DNA of 38,517 bases from Catajapyx aquilonaris (Eukaryota), in assembly GCA_000934665.2 (NCBI GenBank), contig JYFJ02000922.1, forward strand, positions 62,001 to 100,517. The letters run 5' to 3'. The notes under the pieces were generated by a model. That model searched no databases. It saw nothing but the letters and a program-made list of their open reading frames with translations, and had not been told where the DNA came from. The position numbers and the translations under genes were made by a program. Positions 10,016-37,210 of the stretch are shown piece by piece (the stretch's first letter is position 1; the number at the start of each line of letters is the position of its first letter).

Positions 10016-10022
10016 AATAATA

Positions 10023-10102: not shown

Positions 10103-10103
<1 letters not shown>

Positions 10104-13783: not shown

Positions 13784-16700
13784 GTAATCCATTAATCTCA
13801 AAATAATTCGAACAACAAGTATTTAAGGAAGCGCACACTTCCCCCATGAGTGACTAACCCCTCGTTAAGATATCAAGGGCGATTATTACGAGAATATTTC
13901 GAGAAATATGCCGGATAAATATAGTTGGAGGTTTGTTACCTGACAGGTAACTTGGGATACCAGGATTGCTTCATTTGAATCACGTGACCAATATCCTCCA
14001 ACTATAACACCTCCGGGTCTCCTTCAATGCAATCTCCTTTCTTAGCATTACAGTTACTGCTTCCGCCACCTGTATACTAGCCAACTTGGGAGCACTTTTC
14101 CACACCTAACTCTTGACCAAATGTTTCAGTATCGACGTCCGTGGTCGGCCACTGCTTCAAGCCAAACACTGGTCCGCCTCTCATGCCTTCGGATCTCGAG
14201 CATACTTCCGCACAGGAGTCGATCCGGCGCTCCTTGTCGTCGAAAACGTGCAATCTAAAGACGAAGGTGTTTACAGATGCAGAGTGGACTTCCGCAACTC
14301 GCCCACCAGAAACTTCCAAGTCAACCTCACCGTCATTGGTAAGCGCCAAAACTTGTTCCCCTTGTATTGACCATGTCTCAACTTTTGGTGGGGAGAGGTG
14401 AGGGAAGTGAAATCGGCTTCCCTCATCAGTTGTGCCAATGGCAGTTGTGGTCTGGCCCAGAAATGACAGTTACTCGGCCATTCAGGGCGAATTCCCGCGG
14501 GTGATTAGAGCTCTCCTTTGCTGACATGGGGACTACAACTCCCAACAACTGCGGAGTGTGCGCGCCCCAAAATGTTTAGGGCACGTTTGTGCATGCCAGC
14601 TATTGCGGCTGCCAGCAAAAATTTATCTGAATTTAAAACACGCAGTGTGCAGCAGCCAGTGCCACTGAAACGTGATTCTTTCATTCTGCCGGCTTTTGAC
14701 AGCCTGTACACAGGTTATGTCCACCCAAAAACTCTCCCAGACACAACAGGGTTGAGGCCTAGTATATTAGATCTGTTTCGTTATCTACTTTCCTTCGCGG
14801 CGTTTCAATATGTGGGATTGCGTTCGTCGTACTTTGTGGAACACGTTCTGCGCCATCGAATTTTATTGGTCAGCCTACAAAGCTTTGTAGTTTGACAACC
14901 GAGAAGCGGGCTCCGCAATATTATGTTCTGCTCTGTTGGGGTTTCCATTTTGAAGCCAAATGTACCCAATAGTCGGAATGCTTTTACTCTCCTTGCCAGC
15001 CTGAGCAGGAGGAGTATATGGGGCCAACGCAATTCAATTTATGCGTCATGATGTACAGGGCATGCAACTCAAAATAACGGGGAACCCTATATATCGACTC
15101 GATTCAACAAAACTGCAACTGCAGCATAACTTTGCACTCTCTCATACAAAATGTAACATAACAAATGCATATTCGTCCTGACATGCCATTTCTAGGATCG
15201 CACTCTAGTATTAGGAACTTTTTTATACAGTGATGCATAGAATTTTCACTGCACAATTTTATGGTGTGCATCACCCACAGAGTGCAAGAAAATCAGTGCA
15301 GTATGACATGTTGTGCGACTGGAATTAAAGTCATAATGACCATTGAAAACTCATGTAAATGTGGTATAACATTTCAACATTATTAAACTCTATTATTCTG
15401 TACGAGATTTCCGTTTTTAATACTCAATAAGTGTGATTAGGTTGACGAATAATCGCAGATGACTATTAAATGCTCGTCCAGTAGTGCAAAAATATGCCAA
15501 CACCATAACCAAGTAATCTGTACTCTATCTGAGTTATGAACTTCTGCCCTGGACCATCCACTACCTCTCTCCTCTGGCCCAGCACAAGGGCAATACCCAA
15601 ACTCCTCCAACCGAATCTGGTCGCAATTGGAAGGAACTCGCACACTGCATTTGACGGCCATTGGCATTGCCTTTCTACAATCTGCACCGTCAGCTCCGCG
15701 AATACACAAGAGGGTTTAAAAAATTTTGCACGCCAGTCTCGTCAAAAGCTTCTATGGTCCTTGTTGTTTACGAGCACGAGAAAATCGCCTTATTCCGCTA
15801 CAAGTCGACTCGAAAACAGTCCTAAGCCTATTCCATACCAATGTATCTATTCCCATTCCTCAGGCTGAAGAAAGTCCTCCCCACCCCTACTATATAGAGG
15901 TAAAAAAGAAAAAGTCTTCTCGACATCACCTCTAGGCAAACGACACCGTTCCACACTGCGGATCCAACTTCTCCATCTTTTCAGCCCGACTATAAATCTA
16001 CTTTTGAAGCAAACGAGTCGGTTTGGAAATGTTCTTACCCCGGAGGCATCTTGTCCGAACCAGATGGACTTATTCGACTTTTCTTATATATAGAAGAGCT
16101 CAAGTTCCCATCCCTCAAAAAGAGCTCCCTCACCCGCCCCCTTCCCACGAAAGTCGATGCCTGTGATTTCATAATCTGTGAATGTAGTAGAGAGGTCTAG
16201 GAATAGGCGCCAGAGGTCCCTTAGGAACAGGCGAGCAACTTGGTTTGTTCATTTGGCTCAAGTGATTGTTTCCATGGCTGAGGTCAACACCATCACGGTT
16301 AATGAGATAATCAACGCTCGTGGAATGAGTTGAGCAAGTAATTCAACCTCATGTTCATTCTGGCTTGCCCATAAAAAATTAATACGCTTCATTCTAATGT
16401 TACTCACACCCCAAATTAAAAGTCGCCAAGGCTATATAAATAATTGAAAATCGTTTTGCCCCCGATGGCATTCCGCGGCTTCTGATGTAACTTTGAACAC
16501 TGTTTAACTTCTCATGCTCTACATGGACGAGCCTTATCAATCAGATAGAGCTTTAAAATCTCATTTCGATTAAACGGCCCGAGGCAAAAATGTTCAGCGC
16601 GATCGTGATCATGTGGCGTGTCCAGTAGGATATTTATCACGCCTACGAAGTAAATTAGGACCAAGTAACCATAAAAAGCCGAGTTCCCAGTTATAATTTC

Positions 16701-19700: not shown

Positions 19701-22700
19701 CATACCTATCCTGACGCTATATTAAATCTGAATTCAAGCAAAGTGGAGGTTGAGGAAAAAAATGACAAATAAAACAAAAGGCTCTTTCACTTTGCTGGAA
19801 TGCTGATAGTTGCACAGCTCTAAATATGTTCATCCGAAACGTTTTTGACAGATAGTAGGCTGCAAAGAGCCTCAAAAAATATTATTCCAATATGTGACTA
19901 CTAGAAGCACACATAATACTGTACAGTACAACCACGTAAATGAACTAGTTTTCCAGAGATTTCATCACGAGGCAAATTCTTAATATAATGTACTTATTCC
20001 CAAAACCCTAAAAATATATTCATGTCCACTGTGGCCTACGAATAGCTGAATTACTCTCATAGCGAACGAATAATAATTTATGAGTACGCCTAGACTAAAA
20101 ATTGAACTGCTTATGTAGGAAAGTAGAGTGGCTGCATATAGTTCAGGTTAGAGCAGTACAGCGAGCTGCACAACGTTGAAGCAACCGTATCCGTAGTGTG
20201 TCAGTGTCTTTCTTCGATGTTTGGGCTAGATGCAGCCGGGGCCGAGCCATGGGCCGTGACAATTTTGATATCCAGAATGACACCAAACAAATCGTAGAAA
20301 TCAATTTAGAAAAAAAAACAGCCATGCTCAGTTGCTTTGGTCTTTATAATGCACAATTACCTGATTAATCAGCAAGGCTTAACTCGGAAGATATTGGTGT
20401 GGGATTCATTCGCGTAACATATTTCATCATTTCCTGGAGTTCAAATTGGCACACTTTTTTGTCGTTGTGAATGATTCTGAATGAAATTTTTTCCATTGAC
20501 CTACATTATATTTAACTTATATTGATATAAAGTTCGGGAAAATCAAAAACCTTTCAGAGTATGGAAAAACATGCAAAAAATGACAGTGCAAGAAATGTCA
20601 CAATTGGGGGGGAAAAAAGGTATCTCCCAAAGGTCGAACGACACTAGTATCTCCATTGAGGGCCGGTTTCACCGAGCTTGGTATATGATAAAACCAGGTT
20701 TCTTTAGGAAAATCCATACAAATAGATAGGGATTTTGAGAAATACCCTGGTTTTATCATATACTGAGCTCGGTGAAACCGGCCCTGAATGATAAAACCAG
20801 ATCGCATCGTGCAGCGACTTTTACCTCCTTCACGTATGGTTGCTCCCAATTTGTTTGCTCCAATGTGAAGGAGAGAGGATTCAGCTGAAGTCATATGCGA
20901 TACGTATCATATGCACACACAAAAATAGAAATGAAAACATAGGAGCCGATTTAGCCCACATGAGAAGTCTTGACAGCTGAGATATTTCATCCCATTGTGT
21001 CAGCACAAATAAGTTGCATCCTATTTCCATCAGTTCTATATGTGGTCCAAAATGGTCTTTCTGTTGCATGCATGCATTTTTCACTGCAGCAAACGCCGTC
21101 AAGGGCCCTCGACTATTTCTAGAAGAGTTCTCTCTCTCCCCCCTCTTTCCCTCTCCTCTCCCCCCTCTTTTTCTCCTTTCCCCATTTTCTCTTCTCTGGA
21201 GTGGTACAGAGGGCAATATTCCCCCGGCTTTCCCAATCAGGCTGTCAACAAGTGCGGAAGAGGACAGAAGCTCCCAGACTACTTTCCTTCATGTTCCCCA
21301 CTTGTCAAATCATGTGCTCCCCCATCCCCCATCCACCCTGCCTCCCCTAGTCGGGACGACTATCACCCCGGAAAAATTAACCATTACGAGGGCAACTCAT
21401 CATGATTATGTTTTAACGAGTTTCGTTCCGCGTTTTGCAAATTGCCCAGACCCACCCCCCTCACCCGCCTCTACCCTCCTCACACTCAAGCTTCTCCTGC
21501 ACTTGTAGGTTCCAACGATTTCGGCAAATGAAACTTAATGAGACGTTATTTAAGCTTTTGTGAGTAGGGATCTCGGCCGGAAACATCGTTATTACAGCGT
21601 GGAAGTATTTCAGTAAATTCCTATTAACAAGGTGCTATTGGAACCCAAGTATGTCTTCAATAAGAGCCTTGATTCATATAAATTAAATGGTGGTCGTATC
21701 AAGTCAGATCCCTGACATAAATTAGGTATTTGCCACACATATATTAGCGTGCTTTAGCTTGAATTTTAACAACCAATGTGCTGAGCCTGGATATAAGCTG
21801 CACGAAAAAATAGCCAGTAAAATGTTAGTGATATAAATGGCAATATTTTCATAATTGTTAAATTAAGCTCTTGCTGCCTTTCACACTAATCGGAGGACCT
21901 GAGGGGCCAACATCGCATTCCGGCCAAATATTAATTTTGGTTTGGTCTGAAACGAGGCAACTAAGACCATGATTTGGAGAAAGGGGGTTGGAAGAAAAAG
22001 ACACATGCTCTGTTATGAGAGTGTGAAGAAACTGCAGTAAATCCCGAGAAAACCAACGTAACCACTGCCAGAACCTTTCGAAACTGTATACCTCACATGA
22101 TCCAATACAGTATACATGACCCGAGAGTCGCACCCAGCACAGCCCAAAATAAGTCAACTCTCTGAGAAGCTCACTGTCACTCTGTCAGTCTTATCCAAGT
22201 AAAACGTAATATTACTTTCAGAGCCCTTTTGATTTATTCCCAATCAATCAAATGGTGCTCTCTTCTTTCACTAAGACTGGGTTGTATTTACGCAAACTAA
22301 TAAATTTCTGATTATGTTTGATTATGCATAACAAGAGATTTTCCCATATTTGCTTTCATAAAACATAAGGCTTAAATCTTAAGGCGTTAAACGATCGGAT
22401 AATTATAACTTTTCAACATATGTTTCGATATTGATATTGCATTCTTGCAATTCTCATCTTTATTTCACTTGTAAAAAATGTTGTCTAGCATATGTAGATC
22501 AGGTTGCCAGAAGGCCGCATGTTTTTCACGTAATGTGTTTTTTTTCCATAGACTATGTTATTCATTAGAGAGTTATGCCTGTTGGACGATTTGTGGGTTT
22601 CATGTTATGGCCCTGAGTTATATTATACGGTAGTACAGTTCAATAAATGCGCATAAGTAGTTAGGTTAGCGTTTTCTCTAGATTCTAGTTGTTTGTGCAT

Positions 22701-22825
22701 TTGCTGGGTTGTTTCTTATTCCGTCCCATACATGAGTACAGTATACCATAATGCTCACTCTTGTGAGTATTGCTTAACTTGCATAGGCCCAACATCATCA
22801 CTGACTAGCTATCCCTTCCGTATAG

Positions 22826-22877
<52 letters not shown>

Positions 22878-25800
22878 ATTTCAGACGCACCTGAAGTACG
22901 ACTGCGCCTAGGAAGCACCTTGGACCCCAGTGCTATCAAAGAAGGTGACGATGTCTACTTCGAGTGCCATATACGTGCCAATCCTCGAGCCCACCGTCTC
23001 TTATGGCTACATAATGTATGTCACATGAATGGAGAGGTGTATTTCTGGTTAGCATCAATTTACATTTTCCATTTTTGAACAGGATACTTTACTTGTGCAT
23101 AATGTGTCCGCCGGAATCATCATGAGCAATCAGTCACTAGTGCTCCAAGGAGTAACCCGAGCAAGTTCTGGTCGTTACACATGCTTGGCCTCTAATAGTG
23201 AAGGAGAAGGTTCCAGCAATGCCGCTCAACTCACTGTCATGTGTGAGTATACAGATATATCATCAGTTCATCACTGGCAGGTGTCCATGTGATTCTAGAT
23301 ATACACGATAACTCTGGACCTGGAGGTGAGGGCAAAAACATTGCAACACTTTGTGATGGTACACCTTATCTGCACACACACACCCACACTCAATCAGACA
23401 TGTTACACATCACATGAAGGGGCGCCCCGAATAATGTTGTACTGACATTGGTGAAAATGATCACTCACAACATTAGCCTATTCGGGGCGACCCATCACAT
23501 ATTGGAACATTTCCACTTTGTCACTGATGGAGATGGCAGGGGGTGCTGAACTGACCAATCCAGGTCCTGAGTCATGGTGTATAGTGACTATAATTGATGC
23601 TGTAGTTAGTGTAGTATATTCACTGTTTTTTTGTTTGTGCTCCTGCCTCACCCCCTATACTTATATCTCAGTTGATCTTGTGCTACACATTAAAAAATAA
23701 TAATACTATAATGTGTAGGCCTAATGCTAATACGAAATCAGTGATTCCCTACTACTGTTGGCAACACATACGATTCCTTATTGTGGATGGAAGTTGGAAT
23801 ACTTCTGAGATGAATGAAATAATAACCTATTATTGTCAGCACTATACATTATGGTTGACTTTATTATTAGTTTATTATATTGGTAGGCCTACGGTACTGG
23901 GTCTTACTCATCTTCTTTTCAGTCATAGTCTGGTAAGTCTTTCCTACATTTCCTTGAAAATAACAGCATTCAATCTAGAACCATAACACTAAATTCCATT
24001 TGAAGTACTGGTAGTTCCAAGGTGAGCTAAATAGTACAACCATTGTGCGAGAGAAAGGTGGGAATAGTCTCACTTCTTCAAAATATGCATATAGGCCTAC
24101 AGTAATAGTGATGATAATACATATGATGGTATCCTCTTTCCATTCATCTTACTGACCTCACTAGTGATACCCAACAACTCTTTTGACTCCAACAGTTGCA
24201 CCTGTTTGCCAGCAGTCAGCACCACAAATAGTGGGTGCATCAAGAGAGGAGATCCTCGAGATACCATGCATAGTGGAGGCCCATCCAGCACAAGTGGAGT
24301 TCGCATGGGAGTTCAGTGGTGCTGGCGAAACTGCCCCTGTGCCCATAGGTCGGTTCCGCAGTGAGGGTTCAAGCAGTGTGTTGAATCATGCCATCATGTC
24401 TGACTTGGACTATGGCACTCTCCTGTGCTGGGGTGCCAATATCATCGGTCCCCAGAGATCACCCTGCATCTTTCAGGTAGTGGCAGCAGGTAAACTGATG
24501 GAGAAGTGCTGCCAGAACTATGCAGCCAGGTTGTCAAAAAAGTAGATGGAATTTTGGTTTGGTTTGGTTCTGCCTTGTACTGCAGTGTTGAAGCATATTT
24601 CATTTCTTCACTATGTAGTTGGCCTTACAGATAATTTTGGAGCAATGACCTTTACACTGGGCCAATTACTACTAGGGCAGAACTGAAAATGCTGATTCTG
24701 TGTCCATTTCTTTGCTTATTGTTTGAGCCCTGTGTGGTACTGTATTTATGCAATATAAAGTTACTACACTTTGTAAGAAACTTGGCCAAAATGCTACAAG
24801 TCATTGACACAGTGTGGTAGCTGCTGGATGCTTTGTGTATATGCCTACTCCCTTGTTACGAGTTTACCACATGTTGCAGTTTAATCCTTATTATTTTAAT
24901 TTCAAAGCAGGCATACAGTGTGTCCCTAAGGGTTCAGATTTAAGAACTCCATTCAAATAAACTTGAACTCTGTACTTCATCTGTTTCATAATCACACAAA
25001 CATTCACAAGATTTACAATACAAAATAAGCCAGGCTGTAACACGTACAATATAAGTAGGCCTCACAAAACGTCGTATGATTTTACAAGCGTATGCTATGA
25101 AGGCATGCTATTCTGCACTAAAACTCTGGATATGACTTATACCCTGCATTTTGGAATTTAGTTCACAGCTACATTTGCAAAATGCCACATACAGGGACAC
25201 TAACAACTAACTAACTAACTTGTAAGTACTGTTGGTGTCCTGAGGGGGGAAAGGAAAGGGAGAGAAGGGAGATGCCCATGGAGAGTGCACCTTCAGATCT
25301 TCTGGCCAACTACAGTAAATGATGGGCTGAGTACCACCCACTTGATTTATGGCATTTCAAGCAATGCAGATGCGAGCTTAATTCTGAAGCACATGGTGTA
25401 GCTCATTATATTTAGTACAATACACAATTAGAGGTTATAGCTAGGTTTACATCACCTAATTTTTTTAATGAGGCACTATTACATTCTACAAATCATGAAT
25501 TTAATTTTGTTACAAACAACTGATACAGTACAATAATTCTAATCTTGAGTGACTTTTTGACACTCTGTATCAGCTATACTGTACTGTACATCATCCCATT
25601 TTCTTGTTGTACAGTTTCCATGCACATCATTGCTTTTGACTGACTTGTGTGTACTTGATGCAGGTCGACCCTTGTCCCTGCGAAATTGCTCACTGACTAA
25701 CCAGACTGCAGATGGTTTGGAAGTGGAGTGTGAACCAGGTTTTGATGGTGGGTTGCCTCAACGGTTCCAAATGGAATTATATGATGCCACAACAATGGCT

Positions 25801-27446
25801 CTCAGGTAAAGTCACTATTGACATTCAGTTCAACTTTGTAGCTAAAGAACATACTGAGGGCACTTGTTCACAAGAATAATGTTTCAGGTACAACATTTCA
25901 AGTGAAGAGCCAGTCTTCTCAGTGACAGGTCTGGAGCCTGGAGTTTCACTCCGTTTAGCTGTGTTCGCAGTCAATGCTCGTGGACGAAGCGAGCCCATTG
26001 TGTTGGATGCCATTCTCCTTCGAGGAGCCAGACGCCACACTGGTCAGACACTTGTTGTGTGTTCCTTTCTGCCCTGTATAACCCATGTGAAATTGCAGTA
26101 GCCCAACGTCAGATGCCATTACTACCACTGGCAGCCATTCTTCTGGGTGCAGCCCTCGTTCTCTTCTCCACTGCCTTGGCAGTTGTGCTGACTCTCAGGC
26201 GTCTGTCTCGAAGACGCATGCCAGAGAAGACAGCCCTCCCTTCTTCACCCCGTACACAAGCTGCAGCTGATGCCAACAATCAACCACCAGCTTCCTCTGC
26301 TTCCAGAACCAAGATGGCAGAGGATAGTGATCCTGACCTCATTCCTGCCATGCAAGGTATTAGGTCACAAATACAAAAGAGAGGTCGAGGTTTTATTGAA
26401 GGCTACATGAAATATGGCATGCAGTCATACTTATAATTTTCAATGTAACTTGACAGATAAACTACTATGCTATGTATATTTTGTGGGCCACTTCTTGCCT
26501 AAGCATGCTGCCAACCAGCAGCAATATTTTCAACTCTCTTGATCAGTATATCTGTAATTTCACATCCTATAAATAAACTTGAAAATTAACTTCATGACAA
26601 TATTTGGTGAGATGAATCAATATCTATCGAGTCATGGGCTAATTATCAATTAGATTCCATCCCATTTTCAATGGCCTCTCACTCACCCCTTCCTCACTTT
26701 CTTTTGTATGCACTGTATGCCAATGTGATTAATCCAAGTTATCAGGGAGCATTAAGAATGCTTGTTACCCAGAAGCCGTCAGTCGGATGCCCCCACCAGT
26801 AAGAAATGGCAGCCCTTGCTGGCCATCCATAGCAGCAACCACGCCCACGCCTTCCACACCCACAATCCTCAATCGAAGCTCTGTGGGCTCACTCTTGTCA
26901 CCAGGAGAAGCAATGCTGACTGATGGAAATATACACCAGGTGAGCCGAAAACCTACATTTGGGGACGCCTGAAGTGCATACCACCACATGGGATGCAAAT
27001 GCTTCAATACCTTCTGTTGTGTTCTAGGTCTTGAGCGTGAGGTAAGAGCAGCCTCACAGACCAACTGAGAAATAATATTACACATTTTATCATCACTTAA
27101 GCTAAATAGTAGCTTAACCCTACAGTCCCTGTAGTTTAGTGGCAAAACACACACTCAGCAAGGGTGTGGACCTGGGTTCGATTCCTAGCAGGGGCACACA
27201 GGGTTGAGTTACGAGGGAGTTGCGGCAATTTTTAAAATGTAGTCGCAAATCCTAATGGAGACAGTTTTCCGATCTAGATGGGAGACCCAGTTGTTGGTGT
27301 CATTTCAGGTGAGAGCGGTGCCAATCAACACAAGTGGCAGCATCACTGGTTGCACCAAGGACAAAGCTACTGGACTGGAACTAAATGGACTGCTTATCCG
27401 AGACCGCTTGCTAGCAGATGCCCGCATCCCAGAGAGTTGCGTCTAG
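13651..27446 (+). CDS. Sidestep-family / nephrin-like Ig-superfamily type I membrane protein (5 Ig + FN3 + TM + PDZ-binding tail); 14 coding exons, 5' signal-peptide exon not located
   Basis: Exons 13651-13783, 14130-14338, 16851-16961, 17161-17364, 18402-18553, 18613-18757, 22885-23015, 23083-23242, 24196-24489, 25664-25805, 25888-26042, 26099-26356, 26746-26939, 27309-27446. All are GT-AG with compatible phases; 2426 nt plus 1 upstream nt = 809 codons, open to TAG. Side-family motifs: [96 protein letters not shown].F. The paralog cannot be assigned. Confidence 0.93.
13920..14006. repeat. Short palindromic element (MITE-like)
   Basis: Perfect 12-bp inverted ends TATAGTTGGAGG/CCTCCAACTATA; internal palindrome GTTACCTG-A-CAGGTAAC and a CACGTG. 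Confidence 0.55.
14130..14338 (+). CDS. Side-like exon: Ig1 C-half, IDVRGRPLLQAKHWS...[26 protein letters not shown]
   Basis: tttcag acceptor; G|gtaagc donor; DxGxYxC Ig motif. Confidence 0.94.
16851..16961 (+). CDS. Side-like exon: Ig2 N-half, EPPQEPVIYDTTGQEVEHVAGPYEEGADVVLTCEVFGG
   Basis: tcttttcgcttccaacag acceptor; G|gtgagt donor. Confidence 0.93.
17161..17364 (+). CDS. Side-like exon: Ig2 C-half, NPPPEVSWLVNGELVD...FTCRAANTRLTPFQEKTVALDLH
   Basis: gctttttcag acceptor; T|gtgagt donor. Confidence 0.93.
17667..18279. mobile_element. Degenerate Tc1/mariner-type MITE in a Side-like intron
   Basis: TA|CAAGGTGATCCCAAATACTTGTCCGATTG versus reverse complement CAGGCTGGACCAAAATACGTGTCAGATTG; similarity extends ~80 bp (AAGCAGT(T/A)ACTC). 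Confidence 0.65.
17897..18110 (+). mobile_element. 5'-truncated tRNA-derived SINE
   Basis: Perfect 14-bp direct repeat AAATTTATTGCAAG at 17883-96 and 18111-24; Pol III B-box GTTCGATCC at 17932-40 in a CCGAG-TTCGATC-CCCGG T-arm. Confidence 0.85.
18402..18553 (+). CDS. Side-like exon: Ig3 N-half, LRPLSARIVSK...CESAGSRPPARLSWWKSGRQLESAKVQ
   Basis: tgtcag acceptor; CAG|gttgga donor; GSRPPA.LSWW motif. Confidence 0.9.
18613..18757 (+). CDS. Side-like exon: Ig3 C-half, ELSGGNISRSVLTWSPTPDDDGQALTCRAENPLLNQSALEDSWRLSVV
   Basis: cctgcag acceptor after a 59-nt intron; T|gtgagt donor. Confidence 0.93.
20660..20784. mobile_element. PIF/Harbinger-type MITE (125 bp)
   Basis: TGA duplication at 20657-59 and 20785-87; 39-bp TIRs GGGCCGGTTTCACCGAGCT..GTATATGATAAAACCAGG with 2 mismatches. 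Confidence 0.9.
22827..22877. repeat. (GAT)17 perfect microsatellite
   Basis: Direct reading. Confidence 0.97.
22885..23015 (+). CDS. Side-like exon: Ig4 N-half, [44 protein letters not shown]
   Basis: atttcag acceptor; AAT|gtatgt donor; EGDDVYFEC signature. Confidence 0.94.
23083..23242 (+). CDS. Side-like exon: Ig4 C-half, [53 protein letters not shown]
   Basis: tttttgaacag acceptor (67-nt intron); T|gtgagt donor. Confidence 0.94.
23416..23496. mobile_element. 81-bp MITE with 4-bp TSD (tentatively Sola-like)
   Basis: ACAT|GAAGGGGCGCCCCGAATA ... TATTCGGGGCGACCCATC|ACAT. Confidence 0.7.
24196..24489 (+). CDS. Side-like exon: complete Ig5, FAPVCQQSAPQIVGAS...[27 protein letters not shown]
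   Basis: ctccaacag acceptor; G|gtaaac donor. Confidence 0.94.
25664..25805 (+). CDS. Side-like exon: FN3 N-half, [47 protein letters not shown]
   Basis: gatgcag acceptor; AG|gtaaag donor. Confidence 0.93.
25888..26042 (+). CDS. Side-like exon: FN3 C-half, RYNISSEEPVFSVTGLEPGVSLRLAVFAVNARGRSEPIVLDAILLRGARRHT
   Basis: gtttcag acceptor (82-nt intron); G|gtcaga donor; GLEPG...AVN.RG.S FN3 motif. Confidence 0.91.
26099..26356 (+). CDS. Side-like exon: transmembrane helix and juxtamembrane tail (LLPLAAILLGAALVLFSTALAVVLTL-RRLSRRR...DPDLIP)
   Basis: attgcag acceptor (56-nt intron); G|gtatta donor; hydrophobic stretch followed by a basic stop-transfer cluster. Confidence 0.9.
26746..26939 (+). CDS. 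Side-like exon: Pro/Ser/Thr-rich cytoplasmic segment (alternative in-frame start 26773)
   Basis: ttatcag or ttacccag acceptor, both phase 1 and in frame; CAG|gtgagc donor; bridges phase 1 to phase 0 as required. Confidence 0.78.
27125..27196 (+). pseudogene. tRNA-like sequence (tRNA pseudogene or SINE head), nominal anticodon AGC, in the last Side-like intron
   Basis: Cloverleaf: acceptor GTCCCTG/CAGGGGC, D-arm GTTT-AGTGGCA-AAAC, T-arm CTGGG-TTCGATT-CCTAG. The anticodon stem has a mismatch, position 33 is C, and the Ala G3:U70 pair is absent. Confidence 0.75.
27309..27446 (+). CDS. Side-like terminal exon, VRAVPINTSG...LLADARIPESCV*
   Basis: catttcag acceptor; TAG at 27444-27446; class I PDZ motif S-x-V. 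Confidence 0.88.
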   Translation: MRAVPINTSGSITGCTKDKATGLELNGLLIRDRLLADARIPESCV

Positions 27447-27606
27447 TGCGTTGGAATGTGAAGGGGGAACCTTCCTTTCATCTTCTACGTACTGTACGAC
27501 GTACCAACAAGTACAAAGTTTCACAAATTCAATACCCTTGTGCATTCCGTTCTTCCCCTCCTACACACTGCTCGGCAAGTGGATGCACCAGCGCCAGGGA
27601 AACAAT

Positions 27607-27612
27607 AATAAA
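27607..27612 (+). promoter_or_regulatory. Candidate polyadenylation signal of the Side-like gene
   Basis: First AATAAA after the stop codon, 160 nt downstream. Confidence 0.5.
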
Positions 27613-27792
27613 AACATTGTCAGTATAAGAGGCCTGATAACAACTTCCATTTCTTCCTGATATTAGTGCCCAAGTTGACCTCACTAACAGGACAGTGACA
27701 AAAGCAAACACATTTTAAACTTATGTACTGTTCTGAAAAATGTTTCCAAATGTACAGAACAATGCATCAAAAGCAGACATGGTGATGTTACA

Positions 27793-27894
27793 CTACGACT
27801 GTGCTGGGCCTTTTTTCTCCTGCTTTTTCTTTGCAGAGGCACAATGAGGGCATCTTTTTATGTCCAGCCGAGGAAGAAAACAACGTGAACATGC
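27793..27894 (-). CDS. Minus gene terminal exon ACSRCFLPRLDIKRCPHCASAKKKQEKKGPAQS*
   Basis: tttttatcacag acceptor; completes HCEACSRC across the junction; TAG at 27795-27793; basic NLS-like end. Confidence 0.84.
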   Translation of the reverse strand, partial: ACSRCFLPRLDIKRCPHCASAKKKQEKKGPAQS

Positions 27895-30800
27895 CTGTGA
27901 TAAAAATGCCATATTAGCAACCACTCAAATTGACATAATATAAAAGTTCCTTGAACAGATAGTATGACAAGTATAACTACTATCACTGTGTTACACAGTG
28001 ATATTGTTATTAGGGAGCGCCATTCTTGTTTTGGACCTTTTTTAACCCTGGACCCGTGATGTGGGGTCTTTTAGGACCCCATCCATATTTTAATTTTTAT
28101 TAATTTTTATATGATACTTTTCAATGTATTGACTATATGCAATCATTCTTTGAACAATGCCTAAAATGATCTCTAATTCAAAAAAAACATGCACGTCCTG
28201 TTAGATACTTTTTTTAAATGGCAAACGTTCATTGTAATTATCATTTTAATGCATTTTAATTCCTTCGGGGTCCTAAAAGACCCCACGTCACGGTTCCAGG
28301 GTTAAATAGCTTACCTCACAATGAATCGACTCTGAGATGACACAGGTCTTGCAGCTAACACAATGCCTCTCTGGTTGGGTTTCAAAGGAGTAGAGCTGAG
28401 CCTTACACCAAGAGTATCGAAGTAAGGTTTTGCAGCTGGGATTTGGGCAAGTGCGAACTCCTGGTGTATAGTCCGATAATTTCAGAAGCTGATGACAACT
28501 TGGGCATGCCATCTTTTTGAAAGGTATCAACTGCAGGATATTCACCTGTATTCAGAAGAAAGGATTTGTCAATTTTCCAGTGAAACTTTTCACCAATCAT
28601 GCCACTTTGTTTCTTACCCCTGTACGCTGTTTTACTTCCAACAAGCACGGATCATCGCAATTTTCATTCACAAATATTCCATTTAAGCGGAGGATGGCTT
28701 CAAATGTGGTGTAATTGTTGCCTACACACAAAAATCACTGCTACATAAAAATTGTATGAGAGATATTTATTCCCACTAACCGTGTAATGCTAATGGCAAT
28801 GATGGACTTGAAGGATCTTTAAGTGGTCGTGTGATACTGTCCATGGGATTTACAAAAAGCTGATTCAACTTGGCATCACCAGCAATGAGAAAAAGTTGCA
28901 ACATGCTTGCATCACTACACTTTGAGAGAAGTATCTGAAAAGAGTTGGTTTGCTTCATCACATCCCAGTCGATATACGACAAAATTAACAAAATCCAACT
29001 TTGTGTATGGCTGTTATATCCAACTGTCCGGCTGTGACATCCTCTCTGGCATATGTTTCATATTTGCAACACTTCTTTACGTCACTGTGCAGTCGACATC
29101 CACTATATATGGCAGGTTTGGTGTCCACTTTTATCAGCACCTATTAGAACATGTCATCCATCATCTATGAATATCAGGTGTTTTGCATTGCAATGGATAC
29201 AAGAAACAAAAACTGGATACAAAGCATCCAAAAAGAATTAACATGGTTGAACTGGTAGGCCATTTATGCTTGCAGATTAGAAGGATATAGCAGTTATCAT
29301 CACAGGCAGCTCACTCACAACCAGCTAACAACTACGGCCATTTCAAATGGAACACCTTGTATATGCTCTAGAGTCTAGACCTACCAAGAAAAGGCAGATC
29401 GCACCCACTCCAGAAAATCCACTATAATAACTGAGGGTGAAAAGCTTGAAGAAATGTGCAGTTGTCACAGTATTATAGCCAACTTTGTGTTTAAGAATTT
29501 TGCTCACATGCATATTGTTAAAAATTTTGCAGATGGACAGCTCATTTGCCTAACCAATGGAAAGTATATAGCCATGCTTTCCACCGGTGTACATAACTCA
29601 CCATAATGTTTGGATGGAATTAGTGTCTGAGATTTTCACAGATTTTATTGTGAGCTGAATAATTCTGAAACACGTGGTATACAGTATAACTCTATACAGG
29701 GTGAAGGGAAACTCGCACCAAATCGCCAGGTAGACTGATAGTACTCGCAAAACTAATATAGGGATGTGCAAGTAGTTTTTGGCTCTGTTGCGTAGTTAAT
29801 GCGTGCGGTGTCCTGAAAGTGTAGAGGGCCAGATGGTGGAACATGAGGCAAAAATGACAAAGTGCATGGGTGTCGTACCCGGATTCTTAAGGCCCATACG
29901 CACAGGCCGTCGACGGTTTTGGTTTTTGGTTGCGTTGACGCCTCGGATCAATCATGACTCATGTAAACAAGCGCAACCCATTGCTTAGAGCTTGTTTACA
30001 TGGGTCATGATTGATCCGAGGCGTCAACGCAACCAAAAACCAAAACCGTCGATGGCCTGTGTGAATGGGCCTTTACTCTGACGGGATTTGATCACCTATT
30101 GCACATGGACAATGTGTTTGGGGACCAAGGCAAGGGACTGGAGGCCCTCGAGCTGACTTTTGCTTCTTTATAGCTGCCAGAACAGATGTGACGTCATGAA
30201 ACTTTGAAGGCGCAGTATGCATTAACTACGCAATGGAGCTCAAAACTAATTGCACATCCCTGTATTAGTTTCAAGAGTACTATCAGTCTACATGGTGATT
30301 GTCCGCGAGTTTCCCTTCACCCTGTATATCTGTCTATGAGTCTGCAGATAAATTTAATCATCATGGATTCTCATAAAATTAGACTTATCCTATACACATA
30401 CCAGAAGTGTACTTACTTCCTCATTATTGCAGCGCATGGCTTTGATTGAGTCCATAGGCACCTCAATACTTATCATTTTTGTTACAGGAAAGTTATCGGT
30501 TAAGTTTGTCATGTGAAAATTGGGGAGCAACTCATATTCATAGACCAGCTTCCTGAAAATGTATATGGTACTGAGCAGGTCTCACTACATTTCTCAAGAC
30601 AATTTCAAACCTGCTAGTGAAGATAACTTTCAGTCTGCTGATGGCATCCTTATGGCTTGCATTTGGCACAAATACATATTGGCCAATCTGTAGGCAAATG
30701 AAGTTGAAGTGCCGTGCCCGTTGATTTTGATGCAACATACCTGCAAGAATAAATTCTTCTTAATTGTTTATAAGAGCACACTGGTCCACATTATTAAGGA

Positions 30801-33800
30801 TCATAATAAATATGATAAGCTTCACTTGCTAGTCATACGATGCTGCAACTCAAAATGTGCAATAGAGAGTGATGAACCATTTGAAATGTCTACATTGGTT
30901 ACAAATTTTTTGCCACTAACAACGGACACTCTCCAAGTGCCACTCATCGATTTTCATGAAATTTGGTGCATTGGTAGGCCACCCCAAGGGATAAAAAATG
31001 CACCTAAAGGGACCTGCTCAAAATGACCATGTGACCACATTTTGAGGGGGGAAGAGGTCAACTCGTAAAATTCCTCAAACTCCAAATGCCCATTTTTGAT
31101 GGCGTCTTCAACTAAATTTAATGGGAAATCATGACCTGACGCACCAGTAGCCAGGAAATATCGTGAAATGTTTGAAATATCAAGCAGTTTATACCCAGAA
31201 TGTGCTGACTACCAAAACGAAAGGCATGGCGAGGCCTATTTTGGCAACATTTCAGGATGGTGTGAAACCTGTCACAAGCCTCTGTAATTATTGTAGCTTA
31301 CACTATCTAACTGTAATGATGCACAAGTTTGAAGTATGCCAAGAATTCTCGGCTAGCAACCAAGCAGCAACTTGCAACTGGTGGCTGATCGCACGGTGGC
31401 ATCACTGTAGCCAGATGTACGAGCTTTCCCGACAGTGCTACATGTCTCAAAAAGAGAACATAAAATAATAGGGGTATGTCCTCAATGAACACACTTTTAA
31501 ACCAGGTGTACAGTATCATGGGCCTGAATCAAGGGTCAGCAAACTGGTTCACGGTCAGAGACATCATCTTTATGAGATTGTTGCATGTGTTCAGTACACA
31601 AACAACAAAATAAGGCGACATTGTCTGATATTTTCATAAAAACTTTCGTCGGTCTAAAAAAATAAACATTTAGGGGGCTATACCCCCCTCAAAAAGGGGG
31701 TCACAGGGTCATTTTGAGCAGGTCACTTTGGGTGTGTTTTTCATCCCTTTGCGCAGGCTACCAATGGACCAAATTTCATGAGAATCCGCGATTGGCACTT
31801 GGAAAGTGTTCCTTGTAAGCTGCTTTCTATTTCTTAGTCCATCTCCCAAGCCAGACAGGTCTTCAGGGTAGGAGACAGACTAAGAAAGATACCAGTCTTT
31901 CCTCAAATATATTCAGTTGGTCCAAAGGAGAATGACTGAGGTATGGATGCTGATCTTTTTTCCCCCATGCGAAGCTAGTCGAGATATATTTTTTAATGAT
32001 TTCAAAAATTCAAAAAATTAATCATCATGTCTGACTGGCTGGTGGGAAAGATCACAGGCCAATCTACTGTAACAAGGTGACAAATCAGTGGCGTTAAGTG
32101 ATTAACCTGAAATATGTAGTGTTACTACCATTAGGCTTTCAAATAACCAGAAATGAAAGAAACCTCTCTCATGGCTCATTTCAGCATTGACTGTTCTTCA
32201 GGAGTGTGTGGTATGTAATCCAATCTGCTTTTTTACTTGCTCATTATTTCATTGAAGGGCAAACACCCGGGTAGAAAAGTACATTACACAGAAATCCATA
32301 AGAAAAAACACACTCACAGACATCTGAGGAAGTCAGCTAATATGGTTTAGTCATGTCACCCTACAATAGACAATGGATTTGTCAATGATCGGCAGTTATA
32401 GAATGTAATTGCAAACACTTACTGACTTAATGCAACTAAAATTCATCTTAATCCAAAAAATCCATGTCAACAAACTGGCTACAAAGTTTTATTGTGAATA
32501 GATAATGTTGTCCAAGATACTGAAAAACCTACACAATGGAGCTACACCTGTGTGCAGTGGTTCTTTAAAAATGATCCAAAAATCTAGAACCTATATTTGA
32601 CAGGAAAAAATTATCCAAGTTACCATATGCAGGGTGTACCAAATGAGTGTCTTCAGTTATAATGGTTGTAGGAAATTTTGCTCAAAGCTCTTATTTTTTT
32701 GTAGCTTGTTGCACAACAATCCTGGTGCCATATTATATAGCAGCCACTACATTCGACCACCTGGGAATAATTGGGAACCTTCATTGGGGCTTAACCAGCT
32801 GCACAATAATAACTACTTCAGGCACTATTAGCAATAACTAAAAATGACCCTGGTGCTTGGAACACCCTGCATCTTCAGTTTTTCAAGGCAGCCAATTTGT
32901 CATATTGCTCTGTGTATCATTATTTTCCCCAAAATGGGGTGTTTCGTAGTGATTCAGATAAATTTTGACATTGAACTTCTGGGCACTACAGGATCACTAT
33001 GTAGAGGTGAAATAAAAGAGGTCATCCTAGAAGTTCATCGTCTGAATCGTTATGAATCATCTTGTGCACACTATAGATTTCAGAATTTACCTCACATCTG
33101 CACTGGCAGAAATGTTTCATATATGACAAGACATGTTGGCATGCAGAGGACTGGTGAGGGCAGGGAGGGGGAGGGAGGGAGGGAGGGATGGGAGTTCAAT
33201 GTGGGAGATTGCATTTTCTTGTGGCAGACTGAAAACTTTGTTGGGCAGGGGAGTACCAACTTGATGCAGGAAAGTACCACGACATTTCAATCTTTTTATG
33301 GAGCACACATTTTATGAGTGAAATTCTGAAACAACTATAATTATGGTACTGTTATCGAACTGGCCCACTGAAATTTGATCTCACGTAGCACAATCATTGC
33401 ATTTTAAAAACCATTCATCCACAGTACTCACTGTCTGCTGAAATGGTCCTAGAAGCATCATTGCCATTCACCATTGGAGAAGTGATGGTCTCTCTTGAGT
33501 TGATTGCAGCTGTGGGGTCACCACAAACTTTAATTTTTTTGCAGGAATGTGCACCATCAATCTGCAAGGTAAAGGAACATTCAGAATGTGCGAGCAAACA
33601 AGACTCGAGGTAATTTTTATAGCCTACCTGTCCTGTCTGCTGCTTATGGTCCACACTATAAAAATTAGAAGCAAGCGGAGAGGTGCCCGGAAGTATAAAT
33701 TTATCTTCCTTTGTGTTATGACCAACACTACTGATACCATGATTTATCAGCTGCACTTGAGCATGGGCTTTAGACTTGATGGTAGCCGAGAGTTCGTGTC

Positions 33801-34341
33801 TATCTTTGCATACCATTCGAGCTCCAATTTTCAATGGTAGGAGTTCAATTTTACAGTTTTCCCTGCACACATCAGTTGGTCCTACAAGCTGCTTTTTCTT
33901 GCAACGCTTAAACTTTCCAATGTTAGAGACTGCCTGTGGATTTTTTACTGCCAGCAATTCCTTAACTGTTGGCAATTTTGTCTTAGGCGGCTTTTCACTG
34001 ATAGGAGATGGAGCAGATTTGGAATCTTCAGGTATAGTAAACTGAATTATTATTTGTCCAATGTGGTCCTGGGGCTCTATAATGTACTGCTCATGTACTT
34101 GTGGATTCCCAAGGTCAGCATCCATTGAGGATATGTATGGCTCCTCAACTATGGCCTCGTGTATTGTGTTATGTTCACTATCATTTTCAGTTGCCCCAGA
34201 ATCAGACTGACCCCATAAAGAAATGATCTTGTCCACTTCATTCAAAGCTACTTCTTTTGATACCACACCCTCCTCAGGTCCATTGTCAGTACAAAGATTT
34301 GTCAGAAAGCCATAGTCAATCCCATCAATCACATCATCCAT
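27793..34341 (-). CDS. Uncharacterised ~635-aa protein: acidic/low-complexity N-terminus + TRF2/HOY1-type PH-like domain + C-terminal Cys/His-rich zinc-finger region; 8 coding exons
   Basis: Exons in transcript order: 34341-33432, 30740-30611, 30552-30417, 29140-29000, 28934-28781, 28721-28618, 28545-28315, 27894-27793. All are GT-AG with junction phases 1,2,0,0,1,0,0; total 1908 nt = 636 codons, no internal stop. Four introns are 58-72 nt, like those of the neighbouring gene. Confidence 0.82.
28046..28301. mobile_element. piggyBac-type MITE (256 bp)
   Basis: TTAA at 28042-45 and 28302-05; 35-bp TIRs CCCTGGA(C/A)CCGTGA(T/C)GTGGGGTCTTTTAGGACCCC with 2 mismatches; AT-rich non-coding interior. 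Confidence 0.92.
28315..28545 (-). CDS. Minus gene Cys-rich exon VNILQLIPFKKMACPSCHQ...CPNPSCKTLLRYSWCK...RHCVSCKTCVISESIHCE
   Basis: tacag acceptor (72-nt intron); GAG|gtaagc donor; CxxC/HCxxCxxC pattern. Confidence 0.86.
28618..28721 (-). CDS. Minus gene exon GNNYTTFEAILRLNGIFVNENCDDPCLLEVKQRTG
   Basis: tttttgtgtgtag acceptor (59-nt intron); GGG|gtaaga donor. Confidence 0.82.
28781..28934 (-). CDS. Minus gene exon ILLSKCSDASMLQLFLIAGDAKLNQLFVNPMDSITRPLKDPSSPSLPLALH
   Basis: ctcttttcag acceptor; G|gttagt donor. Confidence 0.82.
29000..29140 (-). CDS. Minus gene exon VLIKVDTKPAIYSGCRLHSDVKKCCKYETYAREDVTAGQLDITAIHK
   Basis: ttctaatag acceptor; AAA|gttgga donor; phase 0/0; 65-nt downstream intron. 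Confidence 0.78.
29697..30324. mobile_element. Tc1/mariner-type MITE with ~120-bp imperfect TIRs
   Basis: TA|CAGGGTGAAGGGAAACTCGC ... GCGAGTTTCCCTTCACCCTG|TA; inverted similarity continues through GTAGACTGATAGTACTC and GGGATGTGCAA. Confidence 0.9.
29890..30072. mobile_element. PIF/Harbinger-type hairpin MITE nested in the Tc1/mariner MITE
   Basis: TTA duplication at 29887-89 and 30073-75; 83-bp arms (AGGCCCAT..CACAGGCC) with 4 mismatches and a 17-nt spacer. Confidence 0.9.
30417..30552 (-). CDS. Minus gene exon KLVYEYELLPNFHMTNLTDNFPVTKMISIEVPMDSIKAMRCNNEE
   Basis: attttcag acceptor after a 58-nt intron; GAA|gtaagt donor. Confidence 0.82.
30611..30740 (-). CDS. Minus gene exon (S)MLHQNQRARHFNFICLQIGQYVFVPNASHKDAISRLKVIFTS(R)
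   Basis: ttattcttgcag acceptor, phase 1 matches the upstream exon; AG|gtttga donor, phase 2. Confidence 0.78.
30916..31819. mobile_element. Non-autonomous DNA transposon with ~140-bp diverged TIRs; superfamily undetermined
   Basis: 30916-31056 is an inverted copy of ~31678-31819 (CCAAGTGCCA, TCATGAAATTTGGT, GACCTGCTCAAAATGACC, TTTGAGGGGGG); TSD unclear. Confidence 0.8.
32630..32869. mobile_element. Old Tc1/mariner-type MITE
   Basis: Ends CAGGGTGTACCAA ... TTGGAACACCCTG; flanks are TG/CA rather than TA. Confidence 0.55.
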
Positions 34342-34343
34342 CT
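33432..34343 (-). CDS. Minus gene large exon (MDDVIDGIDYGFL...SRTISAD), ATG at 34341
   Basis: 308-aa ORF bounded by acceptor tttttttatag (AG at 34345-34344) and donor A|gtgagt at 33431. Confidence 0.85.
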
Positions 34344-34405: not shown

Positions 34406-34460
34406 CTGATCCTCTCCACTTACACCACCTAGAAGCGGGCTGCCAGTCCCACCACACACC
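34406..34460 (-). other. Probable upstream exon (5'UTR or coding) of the minus gene; 5' boundary uncertain
   Basis: CAG|gtgagt donor at 34405 forms a 62-nt intron with the 34344 acceptor; frame is open but no start codon was identified. Confidence 0.5.
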
Positions 34461-36063
34461 TGAGATCAGGCTGCTTCCTAGGTTAGTACTAGACTGACTC
34501 AACAACAAAAAGAAGCCACCCCCTCCACATGTGGGACAATAAGGCATTTGACAGGTGGAGGTGTGTTAATCGACCAATATTACAATAGGCTTCAATTTTA
34601 CAAGTTAAATGGATTTACTGAGTTAAAATTTTTATATTGATATGTTGAGACTTCTTGTTAGCAGCATGTAACATAGTGTGGACAAGTAGCTTCAGAACAA
34701 AAGGGCTATACAGTGTGTTCTAAGTATATCGGTGTCCTTTCAGTTATTGCAAATTTAGCAAGAAGTTGTAATTTTTTGTGTAGCTTTTGCACACATGATA
34801 GTGGTGCCCATAGCATCAGCTAGAATCTACAAGTGCCACACTTCCAGTGGCACCATTCTGCAGCAGCTCCAGTAAAGTATTCTCCAGAAACACTCTGTAC
34901 TATACAATCATGTACAATGGAGAATTTAGGCAAGCTGGTAACAGGTATAGCCAACCTGGACTCTGCCCACTCTGCCAGCATACACATTTGTTACAAGTGG
35001 CTCATGGTAACACTGATATTGAGAGCAAGACTGAATGTATACCGGTATATCATTATCAACCCAAGTAAAATACATTTGGGCAGGAGCTATCAAATGCACC
35101 CAACACAGCTGATGCACACACATAAAGTGGGTCATTATCAAGGAGAGGTTGAGTGACTTTGTTTTCCTTGGTTGGGTCTTAGGTTGTATGCTGGCAAGCA
35201 GGACTTTGCAGACTGCCTCCTTGTATGGACGCATGCAAACTTTCCAGAATAATCATGGTACACTATGTATGAATAGGCTTTTACCTCAGTAACTAGGATG
35301 CAGAGATCAAAATAATGAACCTCCCTACATAAGGTGCCTTCTTCTGGTTCTTACGGGGACACACTAAAAGTTTGTTGGTACTGTGTCTTTCTGTATCTGC
35401 AGAAGAATATTATTGTCTGGATCAGTTACAGTATGTGATTTAAAATGCTACATAAACAATCATAGGCAGAAAAAAATTGGTTGTATCTGCAAAATAGCAT
35501 ATAGGCTACTATAACTCCCATGATTATCTGAATTCAGGTGGTATATTTTCTCCAGCAGTTTGAGTATAGATAAGTTTTTTTTTTTTAATTGGCATGTGCA
35601 TAAACAATTAATATTTCACAGTATATAGGGATAACTTGGCCAAAATTGATGCTCCTGACATGAAGGATGGGCAGTACATACAGTCAACTTTTACTGGTAA
35701 TATGTGTATGTGTCATGCATGCACAAAAAACACCTGAAGAAAGGCACAGGGGTCAAAAACCTTGTGTGGAGTCTGGACTGCAGTTCAATTGCAGCCAGGA
35801 GTGACAAATCCGTCACCTTTCACTAATCCCCCCCTTCAGAGAATCACTTGGGGCACAGACACTCTTTGTAAATGACAAATGATATCATTCCTAAAATATT
35901 ATATCACATCCAGATAGAACTTGCATGTCCTGATGCCAATCTTTGCCTGCTGCAGCTTTACTCAAATAACTTATACAGGGTGTTCCAAGTATCACTGCGT
36001 AATGGAAAGGTCTGTACACTGTTTTGTAGACCATTCACAGGTTTACAATATCACCAGCATTAA

Positions 36064-37210
36064 GGAGAAAGGGTGAATAAACCATTTTATAAATTTTACA
36101 GGGGAGGCAAAAATAGGTTGAACATACGAGGGCCGGTCAAAACAAATTGATACTAATTTTTTGTGATAAAGAGAATTAGTTCATGATTCGCTGTGAATGG
36201 CATTGTGTCCAGAATGGATTGGAGTATTAGATCACCAATTCTTGTTCAAATATTTCAAGATCCCAGGCAATTCTGACACCAGAAGTAGACCTAGGTTCAC
36301 ATTCACCTCCGCTCTGTCAGGAGGTTGGCGGTGAGGGCCAATTTTCAGTGTTGAGGTTTTGTTTCCATTTGGAAAAAACAGCCAGGGAGGTACGTACGAC
36401 ACGCTAAGATTATGAGTAGCAGACACTGGTCACCATATTCGCCACAAGGCGTTACAACTCTTCACAAACCTCCACCCGTATTTGCCTCTCATCTGGCGTC
36501 AACAGCCTGGGGCCCCATTGCATCGGGCGCAAACGCTTCTCATGTGAAAATTGTCAATGCAAAAATCATGTGGGCACTACCATGGGAGATACCACACATT
36601 CTGGTAAGGTCATCGACAGTTATGCAGCGATCTTCCTGGAAAATCACTGCACAGGTGGTGTTAAAAGATCTCCTCGGATGGGATTCTGCAAACAGTCCCT
36701 TTGAAAGCAGACTACTGACCCTTGCTGAATGATTTGTACCATAGGAAATATGCTGTGGAACACTTCTTCACCATACCCCTCTCCTAGCATGTCATATGCC
36801 CCCATCACTGTTGTCTTCAAACTGAATCAAAACCTCAATACTGAATATTGGTCCTCACCACCAACCTTCTGGTAGTGCGAGGTGAATATGAACCTTGTTC
36901 TACTTCTGGTGTCCCGGTCGCTTAGGATTTTGGAATGTTCAAACAAAAACTGGTGATCTAATACTTCAATCCATTCTGGACACTATGCCATTCACTGCGA
37001 TTAATGAACTCACTGTCTTTAAATTTTTTTTAAATCAGTCTCAATTTGTTTTGACTGGCCTTCGCAGTCCTCACAAATCACAGCATCCTGTAGGCCTGTG
37101 CACACCGTTTCCCGTACACATTTGTCCTTTCACCAAAACCTGCAGTGGGTCATGTCACCTTAAGGTACGCATTTACGGCATTTTTTGAAAAATGGTCTCG
37201 CCCTTTCTCC
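36064..37210. mobile_element. TTAA-flanked non-autonomous element (Kolobok-like) hosting a mariner insertion
   Basis: TTAA|GGAGAAAGGGTGA..ACCATTTT ... AAAATGGTCTCGCCCTTTCTCC|TTAA; GG...CC termini. Confidence 0.7.
36127..37064 (-). mobile_element. Defective mariner element with ~285-bp inverted arms and a transposase N-terminal remnant
   Basis: TA|CGAGGGCCGGTCAAAACAAATTGA ... TCAATTTGTTTTGACTGGCCTTCG|CA. The minus strand reads (with frameshifts/stops) EDQYSVLRF*..AYDMLGEGYGEE..LWYKSFSKG, EDRCITVDDLTRMCGISHGSAH, MRSVCAR/WGPRLLTPDERQIRVEVCEEL, equivalent to mariner HTH + WVPHEL. Confidence 0.88.

Follow-up and report, generated by a model that had tools for sequence, protein, structure and literature searches.

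A spliced Catajapyx aquilonaris gene from an undescribed animal protein family, with a predicted PH-like domain probably related to PH_TRF2_HOY1

Gene structure and transcript

The DNA considered here is a stretch of 38,517 nucleotides from Catajapyx aquilonaris (NCBI GenBank assembly GCA_000934665.2, contig JYFJ02000922.1, positions 62,001 to 100,517 of the forward strand); it is called the window throughout, and all coordinates refer to it. On the minus strand of the window lies a real and spliced gene with ten observed exons, an intact reading frame and a product of about 613 residues, in which a low-complexity N-terminal region is followed by a globular middle domain and by a C-terminal module rich in Cys and His. 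The middle domain is predicted to be PH-like, and probably finds its nearest named kin in the Pfam family PH_TRF2_HOY1 (PF24818).

The exon structure was observed in a contig of a public sequencing run (X1), which shares 0.28 of sampled words and whose library type is not on record. This contig (record 1 of the run, 2381 nucleotides, depth 19.2) was placed on the minus strand of the window with 0 mismatches. Its pieces meet at nine joints, all of which read CT..AC on the plus strand and hence GT..AG on the minus strand. The joints connect 34343 with 34406, 33561 with 33628, 30740 with 33432, 30552 with 30611, 29140 with 30417, 28934 with 29000, 28721 with 28781, and 27894 with 28315, and there is one more. 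That nine introns are removed precisely, in a contig with 100% identity, leads us to infer that the contig is a transcript of the gene. The exons are listed below in the order of transcription; those called A to D are the four that an initial annotation of the sequence had proposed.

34406-34478, minus strand: exon 1; the X1 contig ends here (73 letters); frame open upstream of the first ATG, hence either 5' untranslated region (UTR) or coding
33628-34343, minus strand: exon 2; first ATG at 34341; residues 1-238, low-complexity N-terminal region; X1 piece without mismatch
33432-33561, minus strand: exon 3; residues 239-281; bounded by the X1 joints at 33561/33628 and 30740/33432
30611-30740, minus strand: exon A; residues 282-325; the PH-like domain starts at residue 287 (base 30726)
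30417-30552, minus strand: exon B; residues 326-370
29000-29140, minus strand: exon C; residues 371-417; weak-looking donor GTTGGA, yet used in the transcript
28781-28934, minus strand: exon D; residues 418-468; C-terminal helix of the PH-like domain (end at residue 447, base 28845), then linker
28618-28721, minus strand: exon 8; residues 469-503; helical linker with a conserved 'DPCLL' motif
28315-28545, minus strand: exon 9; residues 504-580; main part of the conserved multi-zinc Cys/His module; query with which the family was found
27793-27894, minus strand: last exon, coding part; residues 581-613 and the stop codon (27793-27795); the zinc module's final two Cys pairs

The initial annotation had read exons A to D from the letters alone, and the transcript reproduces them exactly: all four have canonical acceptors (CAG or TAG) and GT donors, the peptides quoted for them agree with the translation of each exon in one frame, and the outer limits agree to the base, 28781 being where exon D ends and 30740 where exon A begins. 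The same annotation had placed the domain at residues ~305-480, which is the right region of the protein under a numbering about 22 too high. This offset arises because the transcript removes a 66-nucleotide in-frame intron (33562-33627, between exons 2 and 3) from the large upstream open reading frame (ORF), an intron that the ORF track reads through.

At the 3' end, the UTR of the last exon continues below 27793. The X1 contig of record 1 covers 27700-27893, and the course of the transcript below 27700 is assumed. No poly(A) signal (AATAAA or ATTAAA) was found in 27250-27795.

The protein product and its animal family

The spliced model holds a single open frame of 613 residues, counted from the ATG at 34341 and ending in the stop codon 27793-27795. 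Since the frame stays open upstream of this ATG to the end of the contig, the true translation start is uncertain. Residues 1-281 are of low complexity, and a Pfam scan of exon 2 in this N-terminal region returned 0 families. Residues 287-447, encoded by exons A to D, make up the globular middle domain of about 160 residues. The remainder (residues 448-613) consists of a short helical linker and then a region with 19 Cys/His residues from position 485 on.

Word-indexed protein searches among longer proteins, with exon C and with the Cys-rich exon as queries, found no homologue, and an ESM-Atlas search with exon C gave no usable match. Relatives were found by an exhaustive HMMER search, for which the query was the 77-residue Cys-rich exon 9, the longest conserved continuous piece. 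Among 1.84 billion proteins, 10 were matched at E<=1e-3, the family members with E from 2.7e-9 to 5.8e-4, and three of the matches (597, 1809 and 1202 residues) also align with the middle domain of the window protein. By BLASTP, this middle domain is 31% identical to that of Tachypleus (E 2e-16) and 28% identical to that of Mya (E 3e-14). The Parasteatoda protein is 23% identical to the window protein in one long alignment across both the middle domain and the zinc module. When an alignment of the domain from three relatives plus the window exons was used for searching, 11 proteins were obtained with E from 3e-67 to 1e-26, namely those of Mya arenaria, Tachypleus tridentatus, Parasteatoda tepidariorum and eight other spiders (nine spiders in all). 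Their sources label them 'uncharacterized' or 'CXC domain-containing', and precomputed Pfam domains are present in 0 of the 11.

A hidden Markov model (HMM) of these 11 relatives, built with no window rows, matches the spliced model at residues 287-447 with 82.6 bits (E 1.9e-27). Conservation of at least 90% among the relatives is seen at 62 columns, 15 of which are gaps in the window protein (13 of them in the CXC region). In the remaining 47 conserved columns the window protein is identical at 25, and many of the others show conservative changes. Given the 82.6-bit match and the identity at 25 of 47 conserved columns, the window gene is, as judged by sequence comparison, a true but divergent member of an undescribed metazoan protein family. 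The domain is conserved in other animals, as the Tachypleus, Mya and spider relatives all match the middle domain of the window protein.

The true relatives (Mya arenaria LOC128208237, Tachypleus tridentatus LOC143233532, Parasteatoda tepidariorum LOC107454613 and spider entries named Tesmin/TSO1-like CXC) share with the window gene the PH-like domain at 23-33% identity, the 'DPCLL' linker and the C-terminal zinc module. Their N-terminal regions are unrelated to that of the window protein and mostly much longer. The animal proteins are known only as uncharacterized database entries, and no published description of the animal family was found. Literature searches by names and accessions (PF24818/PH_TRF2_HOY1, PF24823/PH_RDR2, and HOY1/TRF2 PH-like) brought up no publication that deals with the Pfam family or with a member of it in animals; two matches concerned petunia genes called PhRDR2.

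Two further observations concern the database matches. Five family loci were seen in Tachypleus tridentatus (LOC143233532, LOC143233542, LOC143233575, LOC143233527 and LOC143257056). All five share one value for the length of the longest contig and four fall in one 90%-identity cluster, which suggests a recent tandem expansion. Separately, one match of exon 9 is an unnamed ENA record (P0002, 229 residues) with about six tandem zinc-ribbon knuckle units of ~19 residues, which passes the Pfam DZR model with 32.5 bits. Probably the knuckle motif alone accounts for the match and the protein has no relation to the family.

The CXC domain and the C-terminal zinc module

In every relative with the middle domain, a tesmin-type CXC cluster separates the PH-like domain from the linker. 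In the window gene the conserved CXC columns, including nine Cys columns, are gaps in the model; a tblastn search of the whole window with 26 family proteins gave no CXC-like piece, and the intron at the expected CXC position is only 59 nucleotides long. The window gene is thus a version of the family without the CXC domain.

The Cys/His columns of the zinc module align with those of the relatives, the columns encoded by the last exon included. The predicted model of the module is of intermediate confidence, with a predicted local distance difference test (pLDDT) of 65.8 overall. Foldseek gave no match to it at E<=0.001, hence no known zinc-finger family is assigned. Its best neighbors in the model comparison, all of them weak (Foldseek E 0.018-0.8) and to be taken as leads, are the C-terminal zinc region of ZCCHC4 (6uca), the CHY zinc finger of Pirh2 (2dkt, 7ynx), the IBR/RING2 part of the HOIP RBR, and TMEM55B. 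A search of PDB sequences with exon 9 gave chance-level rows only (E 0.38 or worse), and Pfam showed only faint IBR, DZR and zinc-ribbon matches for the module.

A protein of 229-231 residues in Branchiostoma consists of the CXC cluster, a 'CL..NI' linker and the zinc module, and lacks the PH-like domain. Because this amphioxus protein has only CXC, linker and zinc module, the C-terminal cassette exists on its own; either it is older than its joining to the PH-like domain, or the domain was lost from it.

The predicted fold of the middle domain

The fold was predicted with AlphaFold2 for the Tachypleus domain, which is 31% identical to that of the window protein, from an 11-row alignment without window rows. 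The model (mean pLDDT 81.6, predicted template modeling score 0.79) comprises ten strands followed by helices at 130-141 and 144-150. For this model Foldseek found no match at E<=1e-3. Its first match was RDR2 (7roz, E 4.3e-3; then 7rqs and 7w82), and six RDR2 entries stand among the first eight. Upon re-alignment of the Foldseek matches, residues 107-260 of maize RDR2 gave a Z-score of 11.6 with a root-mean-square deviation (rmsd) of 2.3 over 111 aligned residues.

A structure search independent of Foldseek was made against 48,161 representative chains, and the best 50 rows were listed; 50 of these 50 are PH-superfold domains. The list is headed by SYCP2 (Z 10.9, rmsd 3.0, 103 aligned) and maize RDR2 (Z 10.7, rmsd 3.3, 122 aligned), after which come the FERM-F3 domain of JAK1, REC114 and FACT. 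The domains of SYCP2 (5iwz), REC114 (6nxf, 6hfg), the FACT subunits SPT16/SSRP1/Pob3 (4z2n, 5umr, 4khb) and Rtt106 (3gyo) have the same fold as the Tachypleus domain model (Z 8.5-10.9 over ~80-108 residues) at a sequence identity of only 4-10%, so that a shared fold is indicated and a shared function is not implied. It is background knowledge that the PH-like domains of SYCP2, REC114, FACT and Rtt106 bind peptides, histones or proteins and not lipids.

At the level of predicted structure, it is well supported that the middle domain forms a beta-sandwich of the PH-like type, closed off by a helix at its C-terminal end, and the 82.6-bit HMM match to the relatives allows this fold to be carried over to the window protein. 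The PH-like fold that the initial annotation had proposed from a few sequence blocks was recovered for a relative's domain both by Foldseek and by the independent structure search.

Probable kinship to PH_TRF2_HOY1

Sequences of the relatives were scanned against 24,736 Pfam models, among which PF24818 has a profile of 119 positions and a curated gathering cut-off of 24 bits. The domain segment of Mya matched PF24818 with E 6.6e-5 and 23.2 bits at profile positions 4-114, and that of Tachypleus with E 6.1e-4 and 20.1 bits at positions 4-113. For both segments PF24818 was the sole Pfam family at E<=10, and both matches are colinear, run in one stretch each and cover nearly the whole profile. 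In an ESM-Atlas search with the Mya domain, a plant PH_RDR2 cluster ranked first (0.91, 174 of 256 features shared) and plant PH_TRF2_HOY1 clusters took ranks 2, 3 and 7 (0.83-0.81), on scores that are uncalibrated for parts of proteins. As Pfam, language-model features and structure are partly independent and agree on the same small plant-centered group of PH-like domains, kinship of the animal domain with PF24818 or with its RNA-dependent RNA polymerase-type (RdRP-type) neighbors is likely, and kinship with TRF2/HOY1 in particular is probable. None of the three lines is decisive on its own, and the Pfam scores stay under the formal cut-off.

The architecture offers a comparison as well. In the relatives, as in the PF24818 families, the PH-like domain occurs in a protein that also bears a DNA-binding-type domain. 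In the animal family the partners are CXC (in the relatives) and the zinc array, as opposed to Myb in plant and homeobox in fungal proteins of the PF24818 type, HOY1 being named a homeobox gene. Loop insertions also make the animal domain exceed the PF24818 profile by about 40 residues.

Several results weigh against the kinship, the lack of calibration of the Atlas scores among them. The gathering cut-off of 24 bits was reached by no sequence (best 23.2), and four of the six domain segments, all of them from spiders (Parasteatoda and three more), had no PF24818 match. Scanning of full-length relatives gave PF24818 in 2 of 11 (E 0.0022 and 0.011; 18.3 and 16.1 bits), and these matches lie in the noise range: the same scan returned Peptidase_C54 at 0.0033 and 0.011 over ~20 residues. 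Exons A to D, scanned singly against Pfam as fragments of 42-51 residues, gave no PF24818 match at E<=10, which is expected for fragments as short as these. The matches that single scans of these four and of five other exons did give were noise: DUF7303 at 0.043, DUF7890 at 0.28, and zinc-ribbon or IBR families, faintly, at 0.07-1. Profile searches of PDB sequences with the animal domain alignments returned 0 matches, neither RDR2 nor any other chain. The Z-scores of RDR2 and SYCP2 are level (10.7 vs 10.9), and RDR2 stands only ~1-2 units from many other PH folds. Finally, the fold was predicted for a relative and not for the window protein itself.

The proposal of the initial annotation, that this is a metazoan member of the TRF2/HOY1 type, thus holds in that PF24818 is the sole and colinear Pfam match and the predicted fold is that of a PH domain; it falls short in that the matches are sub-threshold and most segments are unmatched. 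On balance, we think it fairly likely that the observations as a whole are best explained by a spliced animal gene from an undescribed metazoan family, the product of which would have a PH-like domain nearest to PH_TRF2_HOY1, serving as a putative docking module, in a variant without CXC.

Under the strongest alternative, the domain would belong to the PH superfold without specific kinship to TRF2/HOY1, and the sub-threshold Pfam matches would reflect sequence patterns at the level of the fold. This would account for PF24818 scores that are all under the cut-off and for the spider segments that score nothing, for chance-level matches with similar E-values in the same full-length scans, and for Z-scores that do not separate RDR2 from SYCP2, JAK1-F3, REC114 and FACT. 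However, the Mya and Tachypleus domains are only 29% identical to each other, and both pick the same one of 24,736 models, colinearly over ~110 of its 119 positions and with no other family at E<=10. Moreover, the Atlas independently places PF24823 and PF24818 clusters on top. We therefore regard an unspecific PH-like domain as unlikely, and kinship with the plant-centered group as the better reading.

Comparison with the RDR2 domain

A second alternative draws on the structural neighbors. The domain may be nearer to the 'PH' or 'guide' domain of RdRPs (PH_RDR2, PH_met_RdRP) than to TRF2/HOY1, as a free-standing copy of an RdRP module in an RNA or silencing context. The RDR2 domain of plants, called 'PH', 'guide' or beta-barrel-like (7w82, 7w84, 7rqs, 7roz, 7eu0; PF24823), comes first by Foldseek and is the top named Atlas cluster. 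RDR2 residues ~100-263 align with the Tachypleus domain at Z 11.6 with 111 residues or at Z 10.4 with 136 residues, and these are the longest alignments obtained, against ~100 residues for other PH folds. One spider segment also has a weak match to PF25359 (PH_met_RdRP; E 0.048).

The passages on RDR2 in PMC8713982 call its domain beta-barrel-like, 'PH' or 'guide' and name no separate function for it. In RDR2 it is an internal part of the polymerase, whereas in the animal family the domain is found in a non-enzymatic protein. According to a second study (PMC13650160), the corresponding region of the nematode RdRP RRF-3 is part of a surface that binds the zinc-finger protein GTSF-1. Since a nematode RdRP region docks GTSF-1, the animal domain could, as an RdRP-type module, dock a comparable partner. 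The family might then be a free-standing copy of the RdRP 'PH/guide' domain, joined to DNA/RNA-binding CXC and zinc modules and serving small-RNA or chromatin silencing as an adaptor, which we consider a speculative possibility. Chelicerates and bivalves, the lineages of the relatives found here, are among the animals that keep RdRP genes.

The sequence comparisons speak against this alternative. PF24823 was matched in no Pfam scan of the relatives, whether full-length or as domain segments, and the PF25359 match spans only 33 of 220 profile positions. The link to RDR2 is structural only, because the sequence profile searches found no RDR2 chain in the PDB. No RdRP or small-RNA gene was noticed near the locus. 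We thus hold it improbable that the domain is an RdRP module, and continue to prefer a domain probably nearest to TRF2/HOY1.

Origin of the gene

Besides this organism, nine spiders, a horseshoe crab and a bivalve combine a PH-like domain with the zinc module. This same architecture across such animals, together with ordinary animal introns, suggests that the gene is old in animals and was retained patchily, and argues against a recent transfer. That animals acquired it horizontally from a plant or fungal donor and the introns came later, for which only the plant/fungal bias of PF24818 speaks (noted in the initial annotation and shown by the taxa of the Atlas clusters), is highly improbable in view of this distribution, the presence of the C-terminal module also in amphioxus, the very low identity to the Pfam profile, and the ten exons with ordinary animal splice sites.

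Possible role and significance

The PH-like domain would serve to dock a protein or peptide and not to bind lipid, as its structural neighbors (RDR2, SYCP2, REC114 and FACT) are nuclear PH-like domains that bind proteins or peptides and not phosphoinositides. Through the C-terminal Cys/His array the protein would be anchored on nucleic acid or on a partner protein. By analogy, the site of action would most likely be the nucleus: the relatives carry a CXC domain and the best neighbors are nuclear PH-like domains, both of which point to a nuclear or chromatin context. The CXC domain of tesmin/LIN54-type proteins binds DNA. The layout of the relatives with CXC parallels that of the plant (Myb) and fungal (homeobox) proteins said to carry PF24818. 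It counts against this role that localization, partners and function are all drawn by analogy, and that the window protein lacks the CXC domain, on which the analogy to DNA binding is based.

If the kinship is true, PF24818 is not confined to plants and fungi, and would be an old eukaryotic module that has been joined in each kingdom to a different DNA-binding-type domain (Myb, homeobox, CXC), a pattern from which one would expect that these nuclear proteins have a docking function in common. A conserved, unnamed family of spiders, horseshoe crabs and bivalves would moreover receive its first domain annotation, and Parasteatoda would be a tractable species in which to study it. A divergent metazoan branch of a plant- and fungus-centered PH-like family in a new architecture makes a useful annotation and a modest evolutionary point. 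The result is the domain annotation of an uncharacterized gene and not a new mechanism.

Introns and surroundings

Three introns of the gene contain elements that resemble miniature inverted-repeat transposable elements (MITEs).

29693-30328, no strand assigned: nested MITE-like inverted repeats, arms of 128 nucleotides (83%) around arms of 84 nucleotides (95%); noncoding, in the 1276-nucleotide intron between exons B and C
28041-28306: MITE-like element of 266 bp with 40-nucleotide arms (95%); in the last intron
30916-31819: MITE-like inverted repeat, arms of 136 nucleotides, 632 nucleotides apart; in an intron

The nested repeats at 29693-30328 are covered by many X1 contigs of depth ~50-110, with internal joints that lack GT..AG ends. 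Taken together, X1 covers this element and the one at 28041-28306 at depths of ~50-140 and with many variant contigs. The high depth and the many variants suggest that both elements belong to multi-copy families.

A tRNA-Ala gene (anticodon AGC; Rfam 49 bits) lies at 27125-27197 on the plus strand, opposite to the gene and ~130 nucleotides past the assumed 3' end of its transcript. On the other side, at 36184-36245, X1 contigs show ~11 T>C sites in 62 nucleotides (plus strand) and no other type of change. This cluster could be due to a diverged repeat copy, to an allele, or to A-to-I hyper-editing of minus-strand RNA.

Farther away, exon-sized frames that resemble the immunoglobulin superfamily, as judged by eye, are spread over ~14000-26450 on the plus strand (e.g., 17130-17408, 18388-18810 and 24168-24545), and a frame at 25906-26436 (plus strand), also judged by eye, has a hydrophobic stretch and a basic tail. 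The frames of ~14000-26450 look like a neighboring gene of the cell-adhesion type on the other strand. At 9849-10424 (minus strand) there is a long tri-nucleotide microsatellite, one frame of which reads as a run of Tyr codons.

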